A stretch of 24,528 nt of DNA from a virus (IMGVR_UViG_3300028925_003988:1-24528); one strand, 5' to 3'; shown: positions 8,522-23,768, numbered from the stretch's first letter. Numbers and translations are program-made. The notes: a model not told the origin generated them from the sequence alone.

Positions 8522-10746
8522 ACTTTCAGGAATTAATGGGGATGGCGCGAGATCCAAACACTCTGGAGAAGCCTATGTCTTTTAAGGAGTGGTGGCGTTT
8601 GACCCCAGACCAGTTGAAAAAACGTGACGACGAAGCCAAAGGGACAACGGAGAGGGTGACGAGAAAAATTCTCTCAAAGTACAATCCGCCGGGGATGATG
8701 ATCGTGGCGCAGACATCCAAGCTGGCGAAGAAGGGTGTCGAAGCGTATGCACAGAGCCTGCTGGCAGAAGGCATGGACGAAAAAGATATATGGGAATCGT
8801 CCTTCGACAAGTTCGGGCAGGGGGCATACTACGACCGCTTAGATGATGCGTGGAAGATAATGGTTCCAACTCCAGATGCGAAGTTCAACAAAGAAACATC
8901 TTTCGTGGATGACGGGCCAAAGACAACCGTCAGGAGATGGAATAATAGAACTCTGGAGGAAATAATTAAAGGAATACCCGGCCTCTCCGAGGACAAGGAC
9001 ATGGGGAAGATGAGGGTGCAGAATGTAGAGGCTGGTCGTGGGGTAGAAGAGTACGGAGCCTTTGATCCAAAGGCAAACAAGATTGTGAAGGCGGAAGGGC
9101 CGACCCAAAAAGATGCGTTCAAGGTTCTTATGCACGAAATGCAACACGGCTACCAAGGCAAGCACGGTCATGCTAAGGGAACGAGTCCAGAGGCGCATAG
9201 GATGCTTCCAGAAGACATTAAAGAGTCGCAGAAGAACTTAAAGACGGCAATGGCTGGCACAGAGTGGTTGCAGTACAAAGACAGGCATGGTATCGCCGAC
9301 GGTCAAGAAACAATAAGGCAGTGGAACGACTTTCAAATAGGCTACGAAGCGATAGCTGGTGCGCTACCGACTGGCGATATTAAAGATGCGAAAAGGAAAC
9401 ATTATAATGCGCTTGCGTCCGCCGAAAAAAGAATACGGCACACCCTAGAGAGGGCGAAAAACCCAGAACTAGCATATTCAAGAGCGGGGGGAGAGGGCGA
9501 CGCGAGATACACGATGAACACCCACAAGTGGGACGCGGATAAGCACAGGGCGAATTTTATCAAAGACAAATACGAGGAGAACACCGAACCTTATCCTGTG
9601 AAATTTGAAGACAGGTACAGGCAACTCACTCAGGACGAATACGCGGGGAACGAGGAGGTCTGGGAAAGCGTCGGGAAGAAAAAGCCTAATAAAAAAGTTG
9701 GTGTTAGTGGACTAGCACCGGGGCTGATCGGGGAAAAATGGAAGCCGCCACAGTCGAAGATATTCGACATGGTGGGACTGGACGATCCGTCAAGGTTTAT
9801 TAAGACGGAACAGATCGCGCCAGAGAGATACAGGCCAGCGCGGGGAGTGCCGAAGGACATCCTCCCGGCAGGACACAAGAAAAATATGGACAGGGTCGCT
9901 GGCCTTCTTGAGGACGGGATACAGAAAGGCGGACTCTCTTGGTACAACCTACGACCACTCCGCGATGAGTATCTCAATATGTGGGGTGAGGAGGAAGGGG
10001 CGAAAAGATTTAAGAATTTCGCGGAGATCTTTGCCGCAGGATCACCGAGGTCGAAGGTTATCCAGAACAATAAAAGAACGTCCATGTTTCAAAAACTAAA
10101 AGAAGACGGCGTTGACATATCAAAGGTTTTAAACGCTGGGAAGACTCCAACTCCGCAACAGTTCAATGAGGGTTATACCACCATGCCACAGGGGTACGGA
10201 GACTTCGCGCATGGCTTGCACGTTCCCATTATCGGGGATGTCGAATCCGGTGTAGGATTGGCTGGAGGCGAGAAATTTGGGAGGCCCAAGGTTTCCACCT
10301 TCGGACAGAACCTACAGGGTAACCTCGCAGGCTCTACCGTGGACACGCACAACAAGCAGGCGTTGACGTTGCCCTTGAGCTTGAATGTGGCAGTGAAGGA
10401 TAATGAATACGGGTTCCTCGACGACCTGAATAAGAAGCAGGCCGCTCGTCACGGGATACAGCCAGCGCAGGCGCAGGCATCATTATGGCAAGGCGCAAGC
10501 GAGATCACGGGCGTTGACGACTCAAGGCCGCTGATGCAGATACTTGACGAGCGCATACACGCGACCGCAGACAAGATGAGCATTTCCCCGCAGGCCATGA
10601 GGGACGGTCTTATCAAGGGGAAGTTGCCACTTCTTCAGTTACTGCCACTACAGAAAATATTGAAAGAGTTCAAACCGCGCCAGCCGTACCAGCAAGCACC
10701 AATGGGTGGCGGACTTAACATGATGAGATACGGATCAGGATCATGA
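8518..10746 (+). CDS. Polyvalent-type multidomain protein: zincin-like metallopeptidase (HExxH) plus a C-terminal conserved domain
   Basis: HEMQH at 9133-9147, later Y.RAGGEGDAR. C-terminal WY...SPRS.V..N...KV.TF..NL.G...TVDTH...AQAQASLW. ATGA-coupled on both sides. Confidence 0.65.
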   Translation: MNFQELMGMARDPNTLEKPMSFKEWWRLTPDQLKKRDDEAKGTTERVTRKILSKYNPPGMMIVAQTSKLAKKGVEAYAQSLLAEGMDEKDIWESSFDKFGQGAYYDRLDDAWKIMVPTPDAKFNKETSFVDDGPKTTVRRWNNRTLEEIIKGIPGLSEDKDMGKMRVQNVEAGRGVEEYGAFDPKANKIVKAEGPTQKDAFKVLMHEMQHGYQGKHGHAKGTSPEAHRMLPEDIKESQKNLKTAMAGTEWLQYKDRHGIADGQETIRQWNDFQIGYEAIAGALPTGDIKDAKRKHYNALASAEKRIRHTLERAKNPELAYSRAGGEGDARYTMNTHKWDADKHRANFIKDKYEENTEPYPVKFEDRYRQLTQDEYAGNEEVWESVGKKKPNKKVGVSGLAPGLIGEKWKPPQSKIFDMVGLDDPSRFIKTEQIAPERYRPARGVPKDILPAGHKKNMDRVAGLLEDGIQKGGLSWYNLRPLRDEYLNMWGEEEGAKRFKNFAEIFAAGSPRSKVIQNNKRTSMFQKLKEDGVDISKVLNAGKTPTPQQFNEGYTTMPQGYGDFAHGLHVPIIGDVESGVGLAGGEKFGRPKVSTFGQNLQGNLAGSTVDTHNKQALTLPLSLNVAVKDNEYGFLDDLNKKQAARHGIQPAQAQASLWQGASEITGVDDSRPLMQILDERIHATADKMSISPQAMRDGLIKGKLPLLQLLPLQKILKEFKPRQPYQQAPMGGGLNMMRYGSGS

Positions 10747-11195
10747 TCAAAACGAGACGACCACTGCCAAGAGTTTTATATGACCACGGAAAAGAAGTTG
10801 CCCTGTGGGTTGGCGAAAGAATCAAGGATGTCCTGTACGAGTTCGACAAGTGTAATGCGCTCGGAGTCCTAGACGATCAGAGCAACGTGATGTGCGGAGT
10901 TGTTTACCATGACTACCGACCAGAGTGCGGGACGATGCAGTTGTCCATTGCTTCATCAAATCCAATGTGGGCGCGAAGAGAAACGATCATCGAACTTCTC
11001 TCGTATCCCTTTATAAGTTTAAAACTTTTTAAATGTTGGATAGTAGTCCCGTCCGACAATAAACAATCCCTTGCATTGACCAAGCATATCGGCTTCAAAC
11101 AAGAAGCACTATTGCATAACCAATTCGGGAAAGACCGACACGCTCACTTTATGAAGATGAGCCGTAAGGACTTCAAAAGAATTTATGGGAGATAG
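10743..11195 (+). CDS. GNAT-fold acetyltransferase-like protein
   Basis: N.QSL.L..HIGFKQEALL is a GNAT C-terminal motif. Similar small GNAT genes sit between nozzle and ejection genes in podoviruses. Confidence 0.75.
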   Translation: MIKTRRPLPRVLYDHGKEVALWVGERIKDVLYEFDKCNALGVLDDQSNVMCGVVYHDYRPECGTMQLSIASSNPMWARRETIIELLSYPFISLKLFKCWIVVPSDNKQSLALTKHIGFKQEALLHNQFGKDRHAHFMKMSRKDFKRIYGR

Positions 11196-11198
11196 CCG

Positions 11199-12476
11199 AT
11201 GTACCATCTGACAAAAGTATTCGATCCTTTCGAGCCAGAACTGGTTGAATGGCCTACTAAAATATTGAAGGCGTGTGACCAAGGAAAGGGCGGAGGGTCA
11301 CCTCCAGCACCACCACCTGCTCCGGCTGCCCCAGACCCTGTTGCCACTGCCGTTGCTCAAGGGGCTCAGAATCGGGCTGCTGCAATTAGTCAAGCTGAGA
11401 TCGCAATGGTCAACCAGCAGACTCCTTACGGCGCATTGGCATGGGAGCAACGCGGGACTTCACCGATCAGCGTAGATGAGGAAGGTATCACATACGGCGG
11501 GACTCCGCAGTACACCGCGACTCAGACACTGTCACCGGAACAGCAACTAATCCTTGACTTAGGGAATCAAGCTCAGATCGGATTTGGAGAAACAGCAAAC
11601 ACTCAACTGCAAAATGTTACTGATCGACTGGAGCAACCGATTGACTTCAGCGGGATTGCAGCAGCCCCGACGATTGACATAAATTCTTTTGTCGGCAACG
11701 CTCCGACCGCAGACTTCTCTGGGATCGCGCAACCGGGCCAACTTGATTACTCAAGCCTCGGTACACGTCCTGAGTTCAATCAGCAGTTCATGGATGACGT
11801 ATCCCAAGGCATAAGGAACCGCGCACAGCCTTGGCAGGACAGGCAGCTTGGTCAACTAGAAAACAGGTTGACGAATCAGGGCATCAACATTGGAACCGAA
11901 GCATGGAACAAGGAGATGGATCGGAACCAAGTTGGTATAAATGATTTCAATCTTGCGGCTGATCAGAATGCCTTGCAACAGGCTAGTCAGTTCTTTGCTA
12001 ATGAGCAGGCATCGCGCAACCAAGGACTTAATGAACTGGGTCAACTTCGCTCCTCGCGGGTTTCTGATCGTGACCGTGCAATCGCAGAAGCGTCTCAACT
12101 CTTCGGGTTGGAAGCTAACGCGAGAGATCGTGCAGTCGCAGAGGCTAGTCAGTTGTTCAGCCTACAAGCGGGTGGCAGAGACAGGGCTATCAATGAATTG
12201 ATGTTGCAGAGAAACCAGCCTCTAAATGAGTTGGCTGCAATGTTGAGCGGACAACAGGTAGTCCAGCCGAATTTCCTGACACCGCCACAGCCTACGATTC
12301 AGGCTGGCGATCTACAAGGCGCGACGTACGCAAATTATCAAGGGGCGTTAGGACAACAGCAAATGCAGAACCAAAATAACTTGATCGGCTACCAAGCGAA
12401 TCAAGCGGCGGGTAACGCCATGACGGGTGGGCTGATGGGCCTCGCCGGGTCAGGCATGATGGCATACGCAATGTAA
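11199..12476 (+). CDS. Putative DNA ejection/pilot virion protein
   Basis: GKGGGS-P-rich-APDPVATA.AQ...NQQTPYG N-terminus, Q/N/A-rich helical body and a Gly-rich hydrophobic C-terminus. Confidence 0.6.
   Translation: MYHLTKVFDPFEPELVEWPTKILKACDQGKGGGSPPAPPPAPAAPDPVATAVAQGAQNRAAAISQAEIAMVNQQTPYGALAWEQRGTSPISVDEEGITYGGTPQYTATQTLSPEQQLILDLGNQAQIGFGETANTQLQNVTDRLEQPIDFSGIAAAPTIDINSFVGNAPTADFSGIAQPGQLDYSSLGTRPEFNQQFMDDVSQGIRNRAQPWQDRQLGQLENRLTNQGINIGTEAWNKEMDRNQVGINDFNLAADQNALQQASQFFANEQASRNQGLNELGQLRSSRVSDRDRAIAEASQLFGLEANARDRAVAEASQLFSLQAGGRDRAINELMLQRNQPLNELAAMLSGQQVVQPNFLTPPQPTIQAGDLQGATYANYQGALGQQQMQNQNNLIGYQANQAAGNAMTGGLMGLAGSGMMAYAM
12069..12200 (+). repeat. 54-nt (18-aa) tandem coding repeat, about 2.5 copies
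   Basis: RDRAIAEASQLFGLEANA / RDRAVAEASQLFSLQAGG / RDRAINEL starting at 12069, 12123 and 12177. Confidence 0.85.
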
Positions 12477-13198
12477 TGATTATTCACTTTAGTGGTGGAA
12501 AAGACAGCCTCGCGGTTGTCCATATGTTCAAGGACGATCCTGACCTAGAGTGTGTTTACTTCGGGGACACGGGTGATGCCTACCCGCACATGATGGAGTT
12601 TGCTATTGAGACTTGCAAGAAGTTCAAGGTTCCGCTAAAGATCATAAAGGCAGAGATGAGCCAAAAGGAATACCACGACAAATTCGGCTTGCCTTCCGAC
12701 ATGATCCCGATCGTCAGGACACCGGAAGCAATGCCGATCAGGAAAGAAAGCGGGGAACAAAAGATCCAGTCCTTCGTTCAGTGTTGCGCGGAGATGCTGT
12801 GGCTACCGATATACAACGCATCGCTGGGCAAGACAGTCTACCGTGGCATCAAGAAAAGCGACGAACACAGGACGATGGGCGGGGATAAGATTACAGACAA
12901 GAACGGCATAACGTGGGTTAATCCGATCTACGACTGGACGGACGACGACGTTTTCGACTACCTGAAGAAGCACAACGTCGAGCCTGCGCGACATTATAAA
13001 CAAGTGAACGTCAGTCTGGACTGTGTCCGGTGTACGGCACACACGCACTCACCGACTGCGGTGGACAGATTGCGCTGGACAAAGGAAAATTACCCGAGCT
13101 ACTGGCCTGAAATTGTCAGCAGATTTAAAAAAGTTGATGAAGCTGTTAAGGCAGAAAAGAAATTAATTGACGAACCGTTTGACTTCGTTCTGAACTAA
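12476..13198 (+). CDS. PAPS/APS reductase-family (PP-loop) protein
   Basis: FSGGKDS PP-loop, DTG, RGIKKSD and NPIYDWT motifs; CC (aa 103-104) and CxxC (aa 183-186). TAATG coupling to the upstream gene. Confidence 0.85.
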   Translation: MIIHFSGGKDSLAVVHMFKDDPDLECVYFGDTGDAYPHMMEFAIETCKKFKVPLKIIKAEMSQKEYHDKFGLPSDMIPIVRTPEAMPIRKESGEQKIQSFVQCCAEMLWLPIYNASLGKTVYRGIKKSDEHRTMGGDKITDKNGITWVNPIYDWTDDDVFDYLKKHNVEPARHYKQVNVSLDCVRCTAHTHSPTAVDRLRWTKENYPSYWPEIVSRFKKVDEAVKAEKKLIDEPFDFVLN

Positions 13199-20573: not shown

Positions 20574-20601
20574 TTGACATTTCCCCCCATTTTGCTATTC
20601 T
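20574..20601 (+). promoter_or_regulatory. Sigma70-type promoter for the early-type region
   Basis: TTGACA (20574-20579), 16-nt spacer, TG-n extended -10 and TATTCT (20596-20601), with an AT-rich upstream tract. Confidence 0.75.
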
Positions 20602-20651
20602 AAGCAAAGAAATTGATTACATTTTTTTTAAACCTCACCAAGGAGAAAATC

Positions 20652-20900
20652 ATGAAAGCACAAAAGTATTACACCCTCGTAGGAACCTTCCAAAAAAATC
20701 CGTGGGAAATTATTTTCGGTGATTACGACCGAGAAGTCGTTGAAGATGAAAGAGCCGACATTAAAGACTACGGAACCGACTACACCAAATTTAAAATCAT
20801 CACCACCTCTGACGCACAAGCCGACATCGAATGGGCTGTTTCGGTTTTAAACGCGAAGCAATATTTGGGAAATACCACTAACGCTCTGACGAGTCCGTAA
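20652..20900 (+). CDS. Small acidic hypothetical early protein (82 aa)
   Basis: AAGGAG RBS before ATG 20652 (preferred over the track start 20613); YYTL...W.IIFGDYDREVV motif. Its stop codon lies in hammerhead 1. Confidence 0.8.
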   Translation: MKAQKYYTLVGTFQKNPWEIIFGDYDREVVEDERADIKDYGTDYTKFKIITTSDAQADIEWAVSVLNAKQYLGNTTNALTSP

Positions 20901-20930
20901 GGACGAAACTCCCTGCGGGGAGTCAGCGTT
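20880..20930 (+). ncRNA. Hammerhead ribozyme, type I (HHR1); predicted cleavage after C20924
   Basis: Stem I AACGCT/AGCGTT; core CTGACGA (20886-20892); stem II GTCC-GTAA-GGAC; GAA; stem III ACTCCC-TGCG-GGGAGT; GTC cleavage triplet. All core nucleotides are present. Confidence 0.95.
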
Positions 20931-20959
20931 TAAAATTAATCTAATCTCAGGAGATCCAA

Positions 20960-22018
20960 ATGAAAACAGCAAAAAGCATTATCGAACTCGCAACAGAAAT
21001 CCAACGCCAGAACGAATTGAAAAAAGACTTCATCGTCCCGACACAGGTCGCGGCAGTTGCGATCAATGGCGCACAGCAGATCCAGTTCAATGGCAACGTC
21101 TACGACTTGACCGACCACGCACTCGCGCAGGTTGCTGACCGATTGAAGATCCCGAAACGATACCTCGATTATCTTCGCGCAGAGTTCCCTTCTCTGTTGG
21201 AAAATAACATCAACGAACTTTTCAAAAAATTCCCCGAGCAAAGAATGATCCGCACCTTGGATGGTCAGGCCCGTGCATTTTTGTCTGACCGCTACCGACC
21301 GCTTGATAACGCTGAACTCGCCAACGCGGTTTTTCCTGCTCTGCAAAAAGCTGAAGCGAAGATCGTATCTTGTGAGATCACTCCGAAGAAACTTTACATC
21401 AAGGCGGTTCTGCCACAGATCTCCGCGCTGATACCCGGCGGTTCTCACTTAGGTGATGACAACTTAAATCCCGGTCTTACGATCAGTAACTCCGAGATTG
21501 GTACAGGTGGCCTGACAGTTCTGCCAGCCTTGCATGATCCGAAGTGTACGAACCTCTGCACCTTTTCTTTCGCCAAATACAGCAAGTACCACTTAGGCGG
21601 CAAGGGCGCGACTGACGACCAGTACAACGTCTACACAACCGAGACGAAGCAACTCGCCGACGCTACGGTGTTCGCGCAACTGACCGACGTGGTCAAGGCA
21701 AGCATGGGTGGTGAGGTGTTCCAGCAGATCGTTGATCATGTGAAGACGGCACGAGGCAACAAGGTCGCGCCCACACAGGTGACCAAGGTGATCGAAGTTG
21801 TCTCACAAACGCACGGTTTCAATGAGGACGAGAAGGGGTCTGTTCTGGCCCACCTGATCGAGCGTGGTGACCTTTCACAGTGGGGCGTATCTTCCGCTAT
21901 CACCCGAGCGGCAGAGGACGTTGCTGACTACGACAGAGCCTCTGAGCTTGAGACGATTGGTGGTCATGTTATCGAACTCCCTGCCAACCAGTGGCAGACC
22001 ATAGCAAACGTCGCATAG
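20960..22018 (+). CDS. DUF932/DUF945-like phage/plasmid protein
   Basis: AGGAG RBS; RAFLSDRYRPLDN, G..ISNSEIG.G.L.V.P, CTN and H.G motifs; C-terminal A.DYDRA.ELE..GG. Confidence 0.8.
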   Translation: MKTAKSIIELATEIQRQNELKKDFIVPTQVAAVAINGAQQIQFNGNVYDLTDHALAQVADRLKIPKRYLDYLRAEFPSLLENNINELFKKFPEQRMIRTLDGQARAFLSDRYRPLDNAELANAVFPALQKAEAKIVSCEITPKKLYIKAVLPQISALIPGGSHLGDDNLNPGLTISNSEIGTGGLTVLPALHDPKCTNLCTFSFAKYSKYHLGGKGATDDQYNVYTTETKQLADATVFAQLTDVVKASMGGEVFQQIVDHVKTARGNKVAPTQVTKVIEVVSQTHGFNEDEKGSVLAHLIERGDLSQWGVSSAITRAAEDVADYDRASELETIGGHVIELPANQWQTIANVA

Positions 22019-22065
22019 TCCTCTGAAGAGCGCGACACGAAACTCCCCTTCGGGGGAGTCAGGAC
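22010..22065 (+). ncRNA. Hammerhead ribozyme, type I with pseudoknot (HHR2); predicted cleavage after C22060
   Basis: Stem I GTCCT/AGGAC; core CTGAAGA (22023-22029); minimal stem II G22030-C22038 whose loop GCGAC is complementary to upstream GTCGC (22010-22014); GAA; stem III ACTCCCC-TTCG-GGGGAGT; GTC triplet. Confidence 0.88.
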
Positions 22066-22087
22066 AATGGAAAAAAAGGAGAAAAAA

Positions 22088-22312
22088 ATGACGCACTTAT
22101 ACCACGTTACATTTTCAAGAAAAATCACAATTTCAAGTGAGGAAGTCTTGACCGAAGAGGAGATAGCTGAGAAAGCTAAGAAAGATCTTTACACGTTTAA
22201 TAATGTCCCACAAAGTCACCTCGACAACACGGTTGTTTCTGTCAAGGCTTTTCTTAGAAGCTACCATCCTTCAGACTTAATTAAAGACTACGAAATCCAA
22301 CAAACTATTTAG
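22088..22312 (+). CDS. Hypothetical protein (74 aa)
   Basis: AAGGAG RBS before ATG 22088. The alternative in-frame ATG 22067 lies just 3' of HHR2 stem I. Confidence 0.7.
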   Translation: MTHLYHVTFSRKITISSEEVLTEEEIAEKAKKDLYTFNNVPQSHLDNTVVSVKAFLRSYHPSDLIKDYEIQQTI

Positions 22313-22320
22313 GAGATTTA

Positions 22321-22524
22321 ATGCAAACTTTAGAAGACAAGATTAGCATCGTCAATAGGTACATCAGGAACGGCATTAAAACGGGAGACATCCCGCTTCC
22401 TGAAGCCCTTACTCTCGACACGGCGTGGCGTGGTATCCAATGTGAACTGAAACAGCTTCAGCAGCATCCTAATATTACAAGGATACATACTTTAAATAAC
22501 GCCTCGTTATTTAACACCAATTAG
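22321..22524 (+). CDS. Hypothetical protein (67 aa)
   Basis: AGGAG RBS overlapping the upstream stop, then ATG. Confidence 0.7.
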   Translation: MQTLEDKISIVNRYIRNGIKTGDIPLPEALTLDTAWRGIQCELKQLQQHPNITRIHTLNNASLFNTN

Positions 22525-22527
22525 GCA

Positions 22528-22775
22528 ACCGCTTTTAAAACCAATCGCTCTCAGCCAGCGACAAGCGGTCGGGGTGGTGAGGATGTACAGGGTGCTTTGC
22601 CGCTCCAGCCTTTCAGTTTCACAGTAACCACAGGGTGGATCCTCAAGACACCTGACTACTCGCGAGAGGTGGTCAATGCTGTGGATTAAATAGGGCTGGT
22701 GGTCTTTTGCGCTACAACGCACCAGATCGCTTACGGGGGTGATGGGGAATACTTGGGCCTCTCACTCCCTGCCCT
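22528..22775 (+). ncRNA. Unassigned structured intergenic RNA candidate
   Basis: Several nested helices with G-U pairs favouring the + strand, plus a 7-bp potential pseudoknot (details in findings). No credible + strand ORF. Confidence 0.55.
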
Positions 22776-22798
22776 TAACTATGAATCGGAGAGATTAA

Positions 22799-22951
22799 GT
22801 GTATCAATATAAAATTCACAAGGAATCTACAAGGTGGAATCACGACACAATGGAAGACGAAGATGTGGCGTATTGCAACCAGAAAAACTATAGATTGCTA
22901 ACTGCGTGTTGGTCGGATGTGAATTGCGAAATATGCCTTAATTTGAGATAA
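22799..22951 (+). CDS. 50-aa Cys/His-containing (putative zinc-binding) protein, not in the ORF track
   Basis: GGAG RBS, GTG start; MYQYKIH...YCNQ...CWSDVNCEICLNLR with His, Cys and CxxC. Confidence 0.65.
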   Translation: MYQYKIHKESTRWNHDTMEDEDVAYCNQKNYRLLTACWSDVNCEICLNLR

Positions 22952-23094
22952 ATTCATTTACTGGGTCGCTTAAATAATCCCTTTTTAAGTAAGGAGTATA
23001 ATAATGGCATTTAATCATCCATTCGGGAATTTTTTACAGGCTCACCGGGCAGAGTTTTTTGGTGACCTTCCCGACAATTCAAAGGAGACAAATC

Positions 23095-23364
23095 ATGACA
23101 GAAAAGGAACCGCAACAAAGCCAAGCCCCTGTGTATCCACCGCTGATAGTCGGGCAGATGCTAGAGAGACTGACCGACGATGTCGGCAGGATGGCGATTC
23201 AGTCCGCGACGAATCAAGGCTACAACAAGGCGACGTTTGTACAGATCGAAAAACAACTGAAGGATCTAGAGGTAGCGATCGCTAAAATCACGCAGTCGCA
23301 AGTTACTGTCATGGAGTCCTTGAGGTTATTGGTCACAGACATCGACGAGGATAACCAATGCTAA
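23095..23364 (+). CDS. Hypothetical coiled-coil protein (89 aa)
   Basis: AAGGAG RBS before ATG 23095; IEKQLKDLEVAIAKI heptads; overlaps the start of the HU/IHF gene. Confidence 0.7.
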   Translation: MTEKEPQQSQAPVYPPLIVGQMLERLTDDVGRMAIQSATNQGYNKATFVQIEKQLKDLEVAIAKITQSQVTVMESLRLLVTDIDEDNQC

Positions 23365-23633
23365 AAATTGACATAGCGGAGCGGGTGGCTCAAGCCACGC
23401 AACTTGGACGGGCGGAGTCGATCAAAGCGGTCGATGTCCTCTTCGCCACGGTCAAGGCTATTCTTGCCGAAGGCCACTCTCTAGACATCAGAAAGTTCGG
23501 GGGTTTTTCTACACGAAAAAAAAGAGAGCGTATCGGGCGGAACCCGAAGACCAAAGAGCCATGTACAATAACAGCGCGAACAGTTATGAGTTTTAAACCG
23601 AGTAAACAATTAAAAGAAAAGGTGAATTTATGA
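23358..23633 (+). CDS. HU/IHF-family histone-like DNA-binding protein
   Basis: IRKFGGFSTRKKRERIGRNPKT.E...I.AR.V.SFKPSKQLKEKVN signature. Confidence 0.95.
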   Translation: MLKIDIAERVAQATQLGRAESIKAVDVLFATVKAILAEGHSLDIRKFGGFSTRKKRERIGRNPKTKEPCTITARTVMSFKPSKQLKEKVNL

Positions 23634-23768
23634 GAGCATATTCGGAAGCAGATCTACTATTAATTTTGGTCGGCGTGTTGCTGTTTATTTTTGGTAGCAT
23701 CTGCGCTTACGTTTTATATTGTTGGAACGAAGAAGTTTTTGAAGACGAAATAATGGAGGAGCAATATC

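Follow-up and report, generated by a model that had tools for sequence, protein, structure and literature searches.

Two type I hammerhead ribozymes, HH1 and HH2, are located upstream and downstream of a gene for a DUF932-like protein in a viral DNA of 24,528 nt (IMGVR_UViG_3300028925_003988:1-24528, in the following called the window). Judged by sequence comparison, both hammerheads are real and well conserved, and the pair is probably functional. In the reading that we favor, to which we assign a probability of roughly 60%, HH1 and HH2 reside at the first two junctions of a predicted early operon and would cut the nascent transcript into linear messages, each of the two ribozymes being a junction module.

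Complete cores (CUGANGA, a G10.1-C11.1 pair, GAAA, and GUC) are present on the plus strand at positions 20886 and 22023, and the respective C17 positions are 20924 and 22060. The cores flank the gene for the 352-aa protein in the same orientation, as originally predicted, and no further CTGANGA..GAAA core is present in the window on either strand. Both ribozymes have the features of type I hammerheads, i.e., the core C3UGANGA9, G12AA14, A15.1-U16.1, an NUH triplet (GUC), and three helices, of which stem I is open and stems II and III are closed by loops, with 6/4/6 pairs in HH1 and 5/1/7 pairs in HH2. A type I descriptor found two matches in the window; among 500 dinucleotide shuffles three had one match and none had two. 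With a covariance model built on 41 hammerheads from other contigs HH1 obtained an E-value of 3.8e-16 and HH2 of 5.1e-8, values that are too favorable, since the majority of the seeds had been retrieved with a pattern derived from HH1 and HH2 and two seeds are close relatives. The next best site in the window had an E-value of 0.17, and thus the model detected no additional degenerate hammerheads there, and in a near-identical contig of 28.7 kb (estimated to be 86% complete) it found the same two hammerheads only. The covariance search with Rfam models that had been suggested as a check placed neither ribozyme at its gathering score: a scan of the whole window gave no match at E<=1, and in a narrower search HH1 reached 26 bits as RAGATH-1-hammerhead (gathering score 56.3) and HH2 was not listed under this model at E<=10.

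A metagenome scan retrieved 24 loci, 21 of which have 68-93% identity; the other three, with 24-27% identity, were set aside. The upstream flank is visible in 17 of the close loci and contains a whole hammerhead in 11 of them, a hammerhead cut by the contig end in two, and a different element in four. The downstream flank is visible in 13 close loci, with eight whole hammerheads, one that is cut, and none in four cases. As 4 of 17 relatives are devoid of HH1 and 4 of 13 are devoid of HH2, neither ribozyme is essential in the clade. In the 12 HH1 and 9 HH2 copies, from loci found by protein homology, the core and C17 are invariant save for N7. Changes on both sides of a pair were found for three pairs of stem I, three pairs of stem II, and two pairs of stem III in HH1, and for one pair of stem I and several pairs of stem III in HH2. 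Core substitutions without covariation, which would have spoken against the original prediction, were thus not observed in the relatives. Covariation also supports, for both ribozymes, that the regions of stems I and II make a tertiary contact. The shared stem III sequence is not a special link between the two; it varies among relatives, and its pattern is present in 68 viral stretches. Deviating stems occur as well: three relatives (L153, L156, L161) have a UUC triplet and a C-U mismatch at the second stem III pair, and in L148 (1126-1200) stem III is long and interrupted.

HH1 (20880..20931, plus strand) consists of stem I (20880-20885/20925-20930), the core (20886-20892), stem II (20893-20896/20901-20904) with a GUAA loop, and stem III (20908-20913/20918-20923), followed by an unpaired U1.7 at 20931. 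Its isolated fold has a z-score of -3.11 in comparison to shuffles. The upstream ORF of 82 aa traverses stem I and the core, and its stop codon (20898-20900) is within loop II. We predict that HH1 is stabilized by a contact of the GNRA-loop A to U1.7. Among the distinct hammerheads of the fetched loci, eight of nine with a 4-bp stem II and a tetraloop have a U at 1.7, versus 3 of 99 others, and in the sole exception the loop ends in U and an A is present at 1.7. The minimal hammerhead with an AL4:U1.7 contact (O'Rourke et al., as described in PMC11875169) shares with HH1 the 4-bp stem II, the GNRA loop ending in A, the 6-bp stem I, and the unpaired U1.7. In contrast to that construct, HH1 is natural, would act in cis, and is part of a phage operon. 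In the enzyme of PMC11875169 itself U1.7 is described as not essential.

HH2 (22018..22065, plus strand) has a different architecture. Stem I (22018-22022/22061-22065), the core (22023-22029), and stem III (22042-22048/22053-22059, with a UUCG loop) are regular, and stem II is a single Watson-Crick pair, G22030-C22038, which closes a loop of 7 nt; in each of the nine HH2 copies parsed, the next position is a C-A mismatch. Therefore, the original description of individually complementary stems I and II does not apply to stem II of HH2. However, the sequence GCGAC of loop II (22032-22036) is the complement of GUCGC at 22010..22014 on the plus strand, which represents the last codons of the gene, GTC GC(A), encoding Val-Ala. 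This strand ends 3 nt 5' of stem I, which begins with the G of the stop codon (TAG) of the gene. Loop II and the last two codons are thus predicted to form a compact pseudoknot of 5 bp, which covaries with unrelated phages. In one relative, L158, a G-U replaces the A-U pair in the pseudoknot. The isolated fold of HH2 is no better than shuffles (z -1.44), as computed with a folding program that is unable to handle pseudoknots.

Hammerheads with a one-pair stem II are not confined to this locus. Core scans of viral contigs gave at least 190 distinct matches and at least 21 complete type I ribozymes. Among the matches listed, 12 of these 21 have the pairing partner at -19/-20, which is the spacing of RAGATH-1, four including HH2 have the compact spacing of -8/-9 (one of them, L385, was assigned by visual inspection), and for the remaining five no partner is evident. 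In eight compact examples 93.8% of the cells pair, and three of the five pseudoknot pairs have changed on both sides, compared to 21-56% pairing in slid registers; the underlying alignment comprises about three independent lineages, and the register of one member, L397, is off by one column. Covariation on another alignment (A6) was excluded as evidence, because its members had been picked for pairing. A search with the exact HH2 pattern across viral contigs returned two near-identical contigs and nothing else. Three unrelated phages (L397, L423, and L385, around position 700) contain the same pseudoknot hammerhead devoid of helix IV with a different paired sequence, and in L423 the gene that follows the ribozyme scores above the DUF932 cut-off.

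The closest known relative of HH2 is the RAGATH-1-hammerhead (RF03152), or PK hammerhead, with the structure 8YDC (Zhan et al., 2024, PMC11300833). As described there, it has type I topology, and G10.1-C11.1 closes a loop of 7 nt, the middle of which pairs with a sequence 5' of stem I, all of which is also true for HH2. In contrast to the PK hammerhead as presented in that paper, HH2 contains neither helix IV nor the AUA4 linker, for which it has no room because only 3 nt separate the partner from stem I, compared to about 14 nt; and its partner strand is coding sequence. For a type II example with a one-pair stem II and a pseudoknot, a cleavage rate above 1.2 per minute is reported at 0.5 mM Mg2+ (PMC3088659).

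Genes for a P22-like portal and a P22-type coat protein (Pfam) identify the window as a phage fragment. 3' of the structural genes there is a run of small genes on the plus strand, with ORFs of 82, 352, 74, and 67 aa, an HU-type gene, and a gene for a YqaJ recombinase, which would represent an early operon. A candidate sigma-70-type early promoter (20574..20601, plus strand; TTGACA, 16 nt, extended -10) matches the consensus and has the top score (10/12) between 19000 and 24528. As the total of 10 promoter-like sites in this region is within chance expectation (7.8 +/- 2.5), we only infer that it functions as a promoter. No terminator-like site was found on the plus strand from 20601 to 23671. 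The first gene of the operon (20652..20900, plus strand), found by translation, encodes 82 aa and has no match in Pfam or PHROG; homologs of it precede HH1 in two relatives, L163 and L165. HH2 is followed by an A-rich leader of 27 nt with AGGAG at 22077-22081 and by a gene of 74 aa that starts with the ATG at 22088 and has no match in Pfam (22061..22312 in total, plus strand). A tRNA/tmRNA search found no such gene. RNA data consist of two runs of a single sample, which are assembled contigs and share 0.07 of their words, and their coverage is one piece of 197 nt (20613-20809) at the 82-aa gene. Therefore, the runs are silent on expression, ends, and circles; no circle joint was seen in this piece, which lies upstream of both cleavage sites.

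The gene between the ribozymes (20960..22018, plus strand) encodes a phage protein of 352 aa that belongs to phrog_1362 (PHROG E 1.1e-47; function unassigned). Its designation as DUF932-like in the original prediction is fair when homologs and fold are considered; the protein itself has no Pfam match at E<=0.01, and it obtains 15.1 bits with TIGR03299 (cut-off 110.7). Homologs with 43% identity match PF06067 at E 4e-9, above the cut-off, and Atlas clusters matched at 0.97-0.98 have DUF932 on 30-79% of their members. A structure model (pLDDT 91.9) matches viral DUF932 structures (Foldseek E 3e-20). The protein is thus, according to homologs and modeled fold, DUF932-like, though it stays under the curated cut-offs. 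In the PDB the model had no Foldseek match, and the best E-value of a sequence search was 0.24. The top ten of VIA-align were RPA and telomere single-stranded-DNA-binding proteins, aligned with residues ~10-111, at Z 5.0-6.9, an rmsd of 3.0-5.7 A, and 84-95 aligned residues, which is weak, below the trust level of the tool, and a lead only; we take these proteins to be OB folds. Phage homologs are hypothetical or unannotated among the 25 matches listed, and the identical gene is present in two IMG/VR contigs.

Cleavage by hammerheads leaves 5'-OH and 2',3'-cyclic phosphate ends (PMC6765202). From this chemistry and the positions of C17, a doubly cleaved RNA of 1136 nt (20925..22060, plus strand) is predicted, with a 5'-OH, a 2',3'-cyclic phosphate, and stem III of HH2 as a 3' hairpin. 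It would begin with an A/U-rich leader of 35 nt (20925..20959, plus strand) and contains exactly one Shine-Dalgarno sequence (AGGAG, 20949-20953) and one ORF, that of 352 aa, so that the size and content given in the original prediction agree with ours. In the mechanism that we propose, one transcript from the promoter at 20574 would be cut twice and yield three linear pieces, the first two of which would end in a stem III hairpin with a cyclic phosphate, and one of the pieces would carry only the DUF932-like gene. Each module would have the order upstream stop codon, ribozyme, short A/U-rich leader, and RBS, and each downstream gene would gain a new 5' terminus, a 5'-OH, some 27-35 nt ahead of its start codon. 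The stability and level of the messages might thereby be set gene by gene. Unmasking of the RBS by cleavage was considered and rejected, because its predicted accessibility is nearly equal in uncut and cut RNA (0.55 vs. 0.54 and 0.80 vs. 0.84). As accessibility does not change, the likely effects of cleavage are on stability and on the insulation of the leaders from the variable upstream gene. The effect on expression could go either way, because a 5'-OH end can promote decay via RNase J1, which has been described to degrade the cleaved glmS mRNA (PMC3997798).

The view that each ribozyme is a module of its own gains weight from other phages. The counts of phage ribozymes that follow rest on related and partly overlapping contigs. 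In 81 of 113 non-redundant cases an RBS and a start codon follow the ribozyme within 120 nt, mostly at a distance of 26-31 nt. An RBS-led ORF stops between -15 and +20 of the core at 80 of 111 ribozymes, versus 6.8% of random positions, the control comprising all sites, intergenic or not. At least two hammerheads on the same strand are present in 45 of the 68 loci, and there are up to eight per locus. Seven stretches (L003, L004, L026, L043, L044, L057, and L064) are arrays in which about 5 kb hold 4-8 hammerheads of type I, usually located between a stop codon and an RBS. HH2 is likewise followed by an A-rich leader and an RBS of its own for the next gene, which starts 27 nt past the cut. Thus, both ribozymes resemble junction modules of the order stop-ribozyme-RBS rather than the halves of a dedicated excision pair, and the simplest reading is that two junction modules happen to enclose one gene. 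From the originally predicted self-excising cassette, the processing part is retained, as the hammerheads are conserved and covarying and their predicted cuts would free the one-gene RNA without a host RNase, and the dedicated bracketing pair is not supported.

An excision pair that has been co-selected to release the mRNA of the gene as a unit, possibly for circularization, is unlikely. It would be in agreement with the exact content of the freed RNA, one RBS and one ORF, and with the presence of just two hammerheads in the window and in the 86%-complete contig. It would also explain that all nine close loci with both flanks visible have either both ribozymes (seven loci, four of which are near-identical) or neither (two loci) and none has a single one, a pattern that fits independent modules just as well. 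However, HH2 has a leader and an RBS for the next gene, L162 contains a further hammerhead one gene upstream, and brackets are not found at distant homologs: among 77 distant viral loci with 37-44% identity, taken from the best 80 of 539, a hammerhead is located next to the gene in only three, always on a single side. The suggested search for flanking hammerheads at DUF932 homologs thus gave adjacent ones and no brackets at these distant loci. Self-ligation into a circle, as considered here with ribozyme-flanked, retrozyme-like RNAs as the reference, would involve re-pairing of stem I of HH2 by the released 5' end, and pair 3 of the re-formed stem is mismatched both in the window and in L157 (duplex energies 0.0 and +1.5 kcal/mol). 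Other loci reach -2.4 (L149, L150, L152) and -7.1 kcal/mol (L153), and re-pairing is possible in four of six loci. As the energy ranges from mismatched duplexes to -7.1 kcal/mol, re-pairing for ligation is not conserved, and self-circularization in this genome is disfavored by the C-C mismatch predicted for the re-formed stem I. A host ligase of the RtcB type would not need stem I re-pairing to join the ends, so that circles may still form. For the clusters described by Perreault 2011 (PMC3088659), neither circles nor spliced products were found. It is very unlikely that the motifs serve mainly as short repeats for gene swapping by recombination, with cleavage being incidental or slow. This idea is compatible with the different upstream genes that precede the same HH1 3' half and leader in the relatives, with the gain and loss of HH2 and the last codons as a block, and with the downstream gene for a YqaJ recombinase. 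Yet, compensatory changes keep the structure and destroy sequence identity, which recombination would not select for, and tertiary contacts that are needed only for fast catalysis are kept.

Alternatively, cleavage might be gated by translation. Ribosomes would unfold the ribozymes, because the pseudoknot strand and the end of stem I of HH2 as well as the 5' half of HH1 overlap with coding sequence or a stop codon; ribosomes that finish the upstream gene would do so, and the release of the next message would depend on upstream translation. Such gating is rather unlikely, albeit the C-termini of the protein lend it some plausibility. All eight HH2-bearing loci, of 12 loci listed, end with Val-Ala-stop (GTC GC(A/T) TAG), and the Val codon is GTC in all seven non-redundant ones, with adjacent codons that vary. 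Three of the four listed loci without HH2 end with Ala-Ala-stop (GCG GC(A/C) TAA), and 82 of 102 distant homologs also have the AA end. In a tree of the 3' part of the gene, presence and absence of HH2 are interleaved, and the switch recurs: L159, without HH2, is sister to the window (support 96/97), and L155, without HH2, is sister to L148 (89/94). Because of this interleaving, ribozyme and last codons seem to be transferred together as a block, and it appears that the compact pseudoknot hammerhead has changed the C-terminus of the protein. Gating would also be in line with the phage ribozymes, as in 80 of 111 of them a stop codon falls within the ribozyme or immediately precedes it. However, genome compaction explains such an overlap equally well, L154 ends with Val-Ala without having HH2, the matching pseudoknot strand lies 3' of the stop codon in L397 and L423, and the cut may be finished before the ribosome arrives or be made just after it has left. 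Because the ribozyme appears to have altered the C-terminus, coupling of translation and cleavage is testable with synonymous mutants.

RNase III cuts the polycistronic early RNA of T7, leaving 5'-phosphate and 3'-OH ends. The proposed processing by junction modules resembles this system, as had been pointed out with the original prediction, in that a polycistronic early phage transcript would be cut into gene-sized pieces; it differs in that cleavage in T7 is protein-catalyzed and the ends here would be a 5'-OH and a cyclic phosphate. More closely related is the arrangement in prophages, where multiple hammerheads often flank individual genes, for which the processing to single-gene mRNAs has been proposed (Perreault 2011, PMC3088659). 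According to that report, three hammerhead clusters cleaved in vitro, one cluster did so in E. coli, and no circles were detected. The clusters described there for C. scindens, A. caulinodans, and A. tumefaciens ardA share with this locus ribozymes on the same strand at successive gene junctions, the proposed single-gene mRNAs, and a variable gene identity. Same-strand hammerheads flank a single gene in a phage with portal and P22-type coat genes also in the present case, so that the locus has the layout of such a cluster. It differs from the clusters of that report in that the flanked gene is DUF932-like, both ribozymes are type I and overlap with coding sequence, and it is known from sequence alone. 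The question of novelty had originally been left to a literature search, and the basic arrangement is of a kind known since 2011. The term DUF932 was not found in the text supplements of Perreault 2011 (PMC3088659). In a literature search that covered few subscription papers, no link of DUF932 to ribozymes or SAM riboswitches was found, nor a pseudoknot strand in coding sequence or a swap of a riboswitch and a ribozyme; figures 2B, 3, and S4 of Perreault 2011 may already show the compact type I form. What is new is, modestly, the compact pseudoknot in the last codons together with the swap of ribozyme and riboswitch. According to reviews, it is still an open question what phage hammerheads do (PMC6765202, PMC6155905). 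The present locus offers a small and clean test case, as it combines one gene with two ribozymes and has natural relatives in which each of the ribozymes is either present or absent, and it adds a compact pseudoknot hammerhead that is missed by Rfam.

In the four of 17 relatives with a different upstream element, HH1 is replaced by a tandem SAM-II-like motif (L155:112-338, L160:70-305, L164:720-945, and L167:976-1201). Its two copies are separated by a terminator-like hairpin with a T run, and the second copy is followed by a hairpin that could pair beside the RBS. The first copy reaches 19-21 bits with the Rfam model SAM_alpha, versus a cut-off of 36. The motif is also present in 59 stretches of bacterial and archaeal genomes, and one copy attains the Rfam cut-off with 36.1 bits. 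Downstream of the motif 54 ORFs were scanned, most of which belong to no family; seven encode AAA_5 ATPases, and four encode SAM synthetase (metK) or Cys/Met enzymes. Three Nitrospina genomes contain the whole cassette at 82-84% identity, and a Nitrosomonadaceae genome contains a shorter part of it at 91% identity. The SAM-like pattern had no match across viral contigs, and the four contigs that carry it are phages or integrated elements. It is a rather improbable extension that the gene junctions are swappable RNA modules, being occupied either by a ribosome-gated compact pseudoknot hammerhead or by a tandem SAM-II-like riboswitch, with a terminator and an RBS-sequestering platform, that is shared with Nitrospina. 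If it were true, phage hammerheads would gain a regulatory job, and DUF932-like proteins would be tied to the SAM or methylation state of the host. The replacement of a ribozyme by a riboswitch is a lead on an uncharacterized and widespread phage protein family.

Several further features of the window deserve mention. The near-identical contigs L001 and L002 are missing about 200 bp (22781-22990, including an ORF at 22799-22951), and about 10 differences to them cluster at 22708-22780, within a predicted multi-hairpin structure (z -2.0). The difference at 22708-22990 looks like a recent module swap. A GC-rich stretch of about 260 nt (22525-22790) between early genes contains no convincing gene on the plus strand; it had no credible Rfam match, and its matches among the fetched loci were confined to near-identical contigs. 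The virion genes include a gene with a PAPS-reductase domain (12476-13198) and an acyltransferase-like gene (10743-11195).
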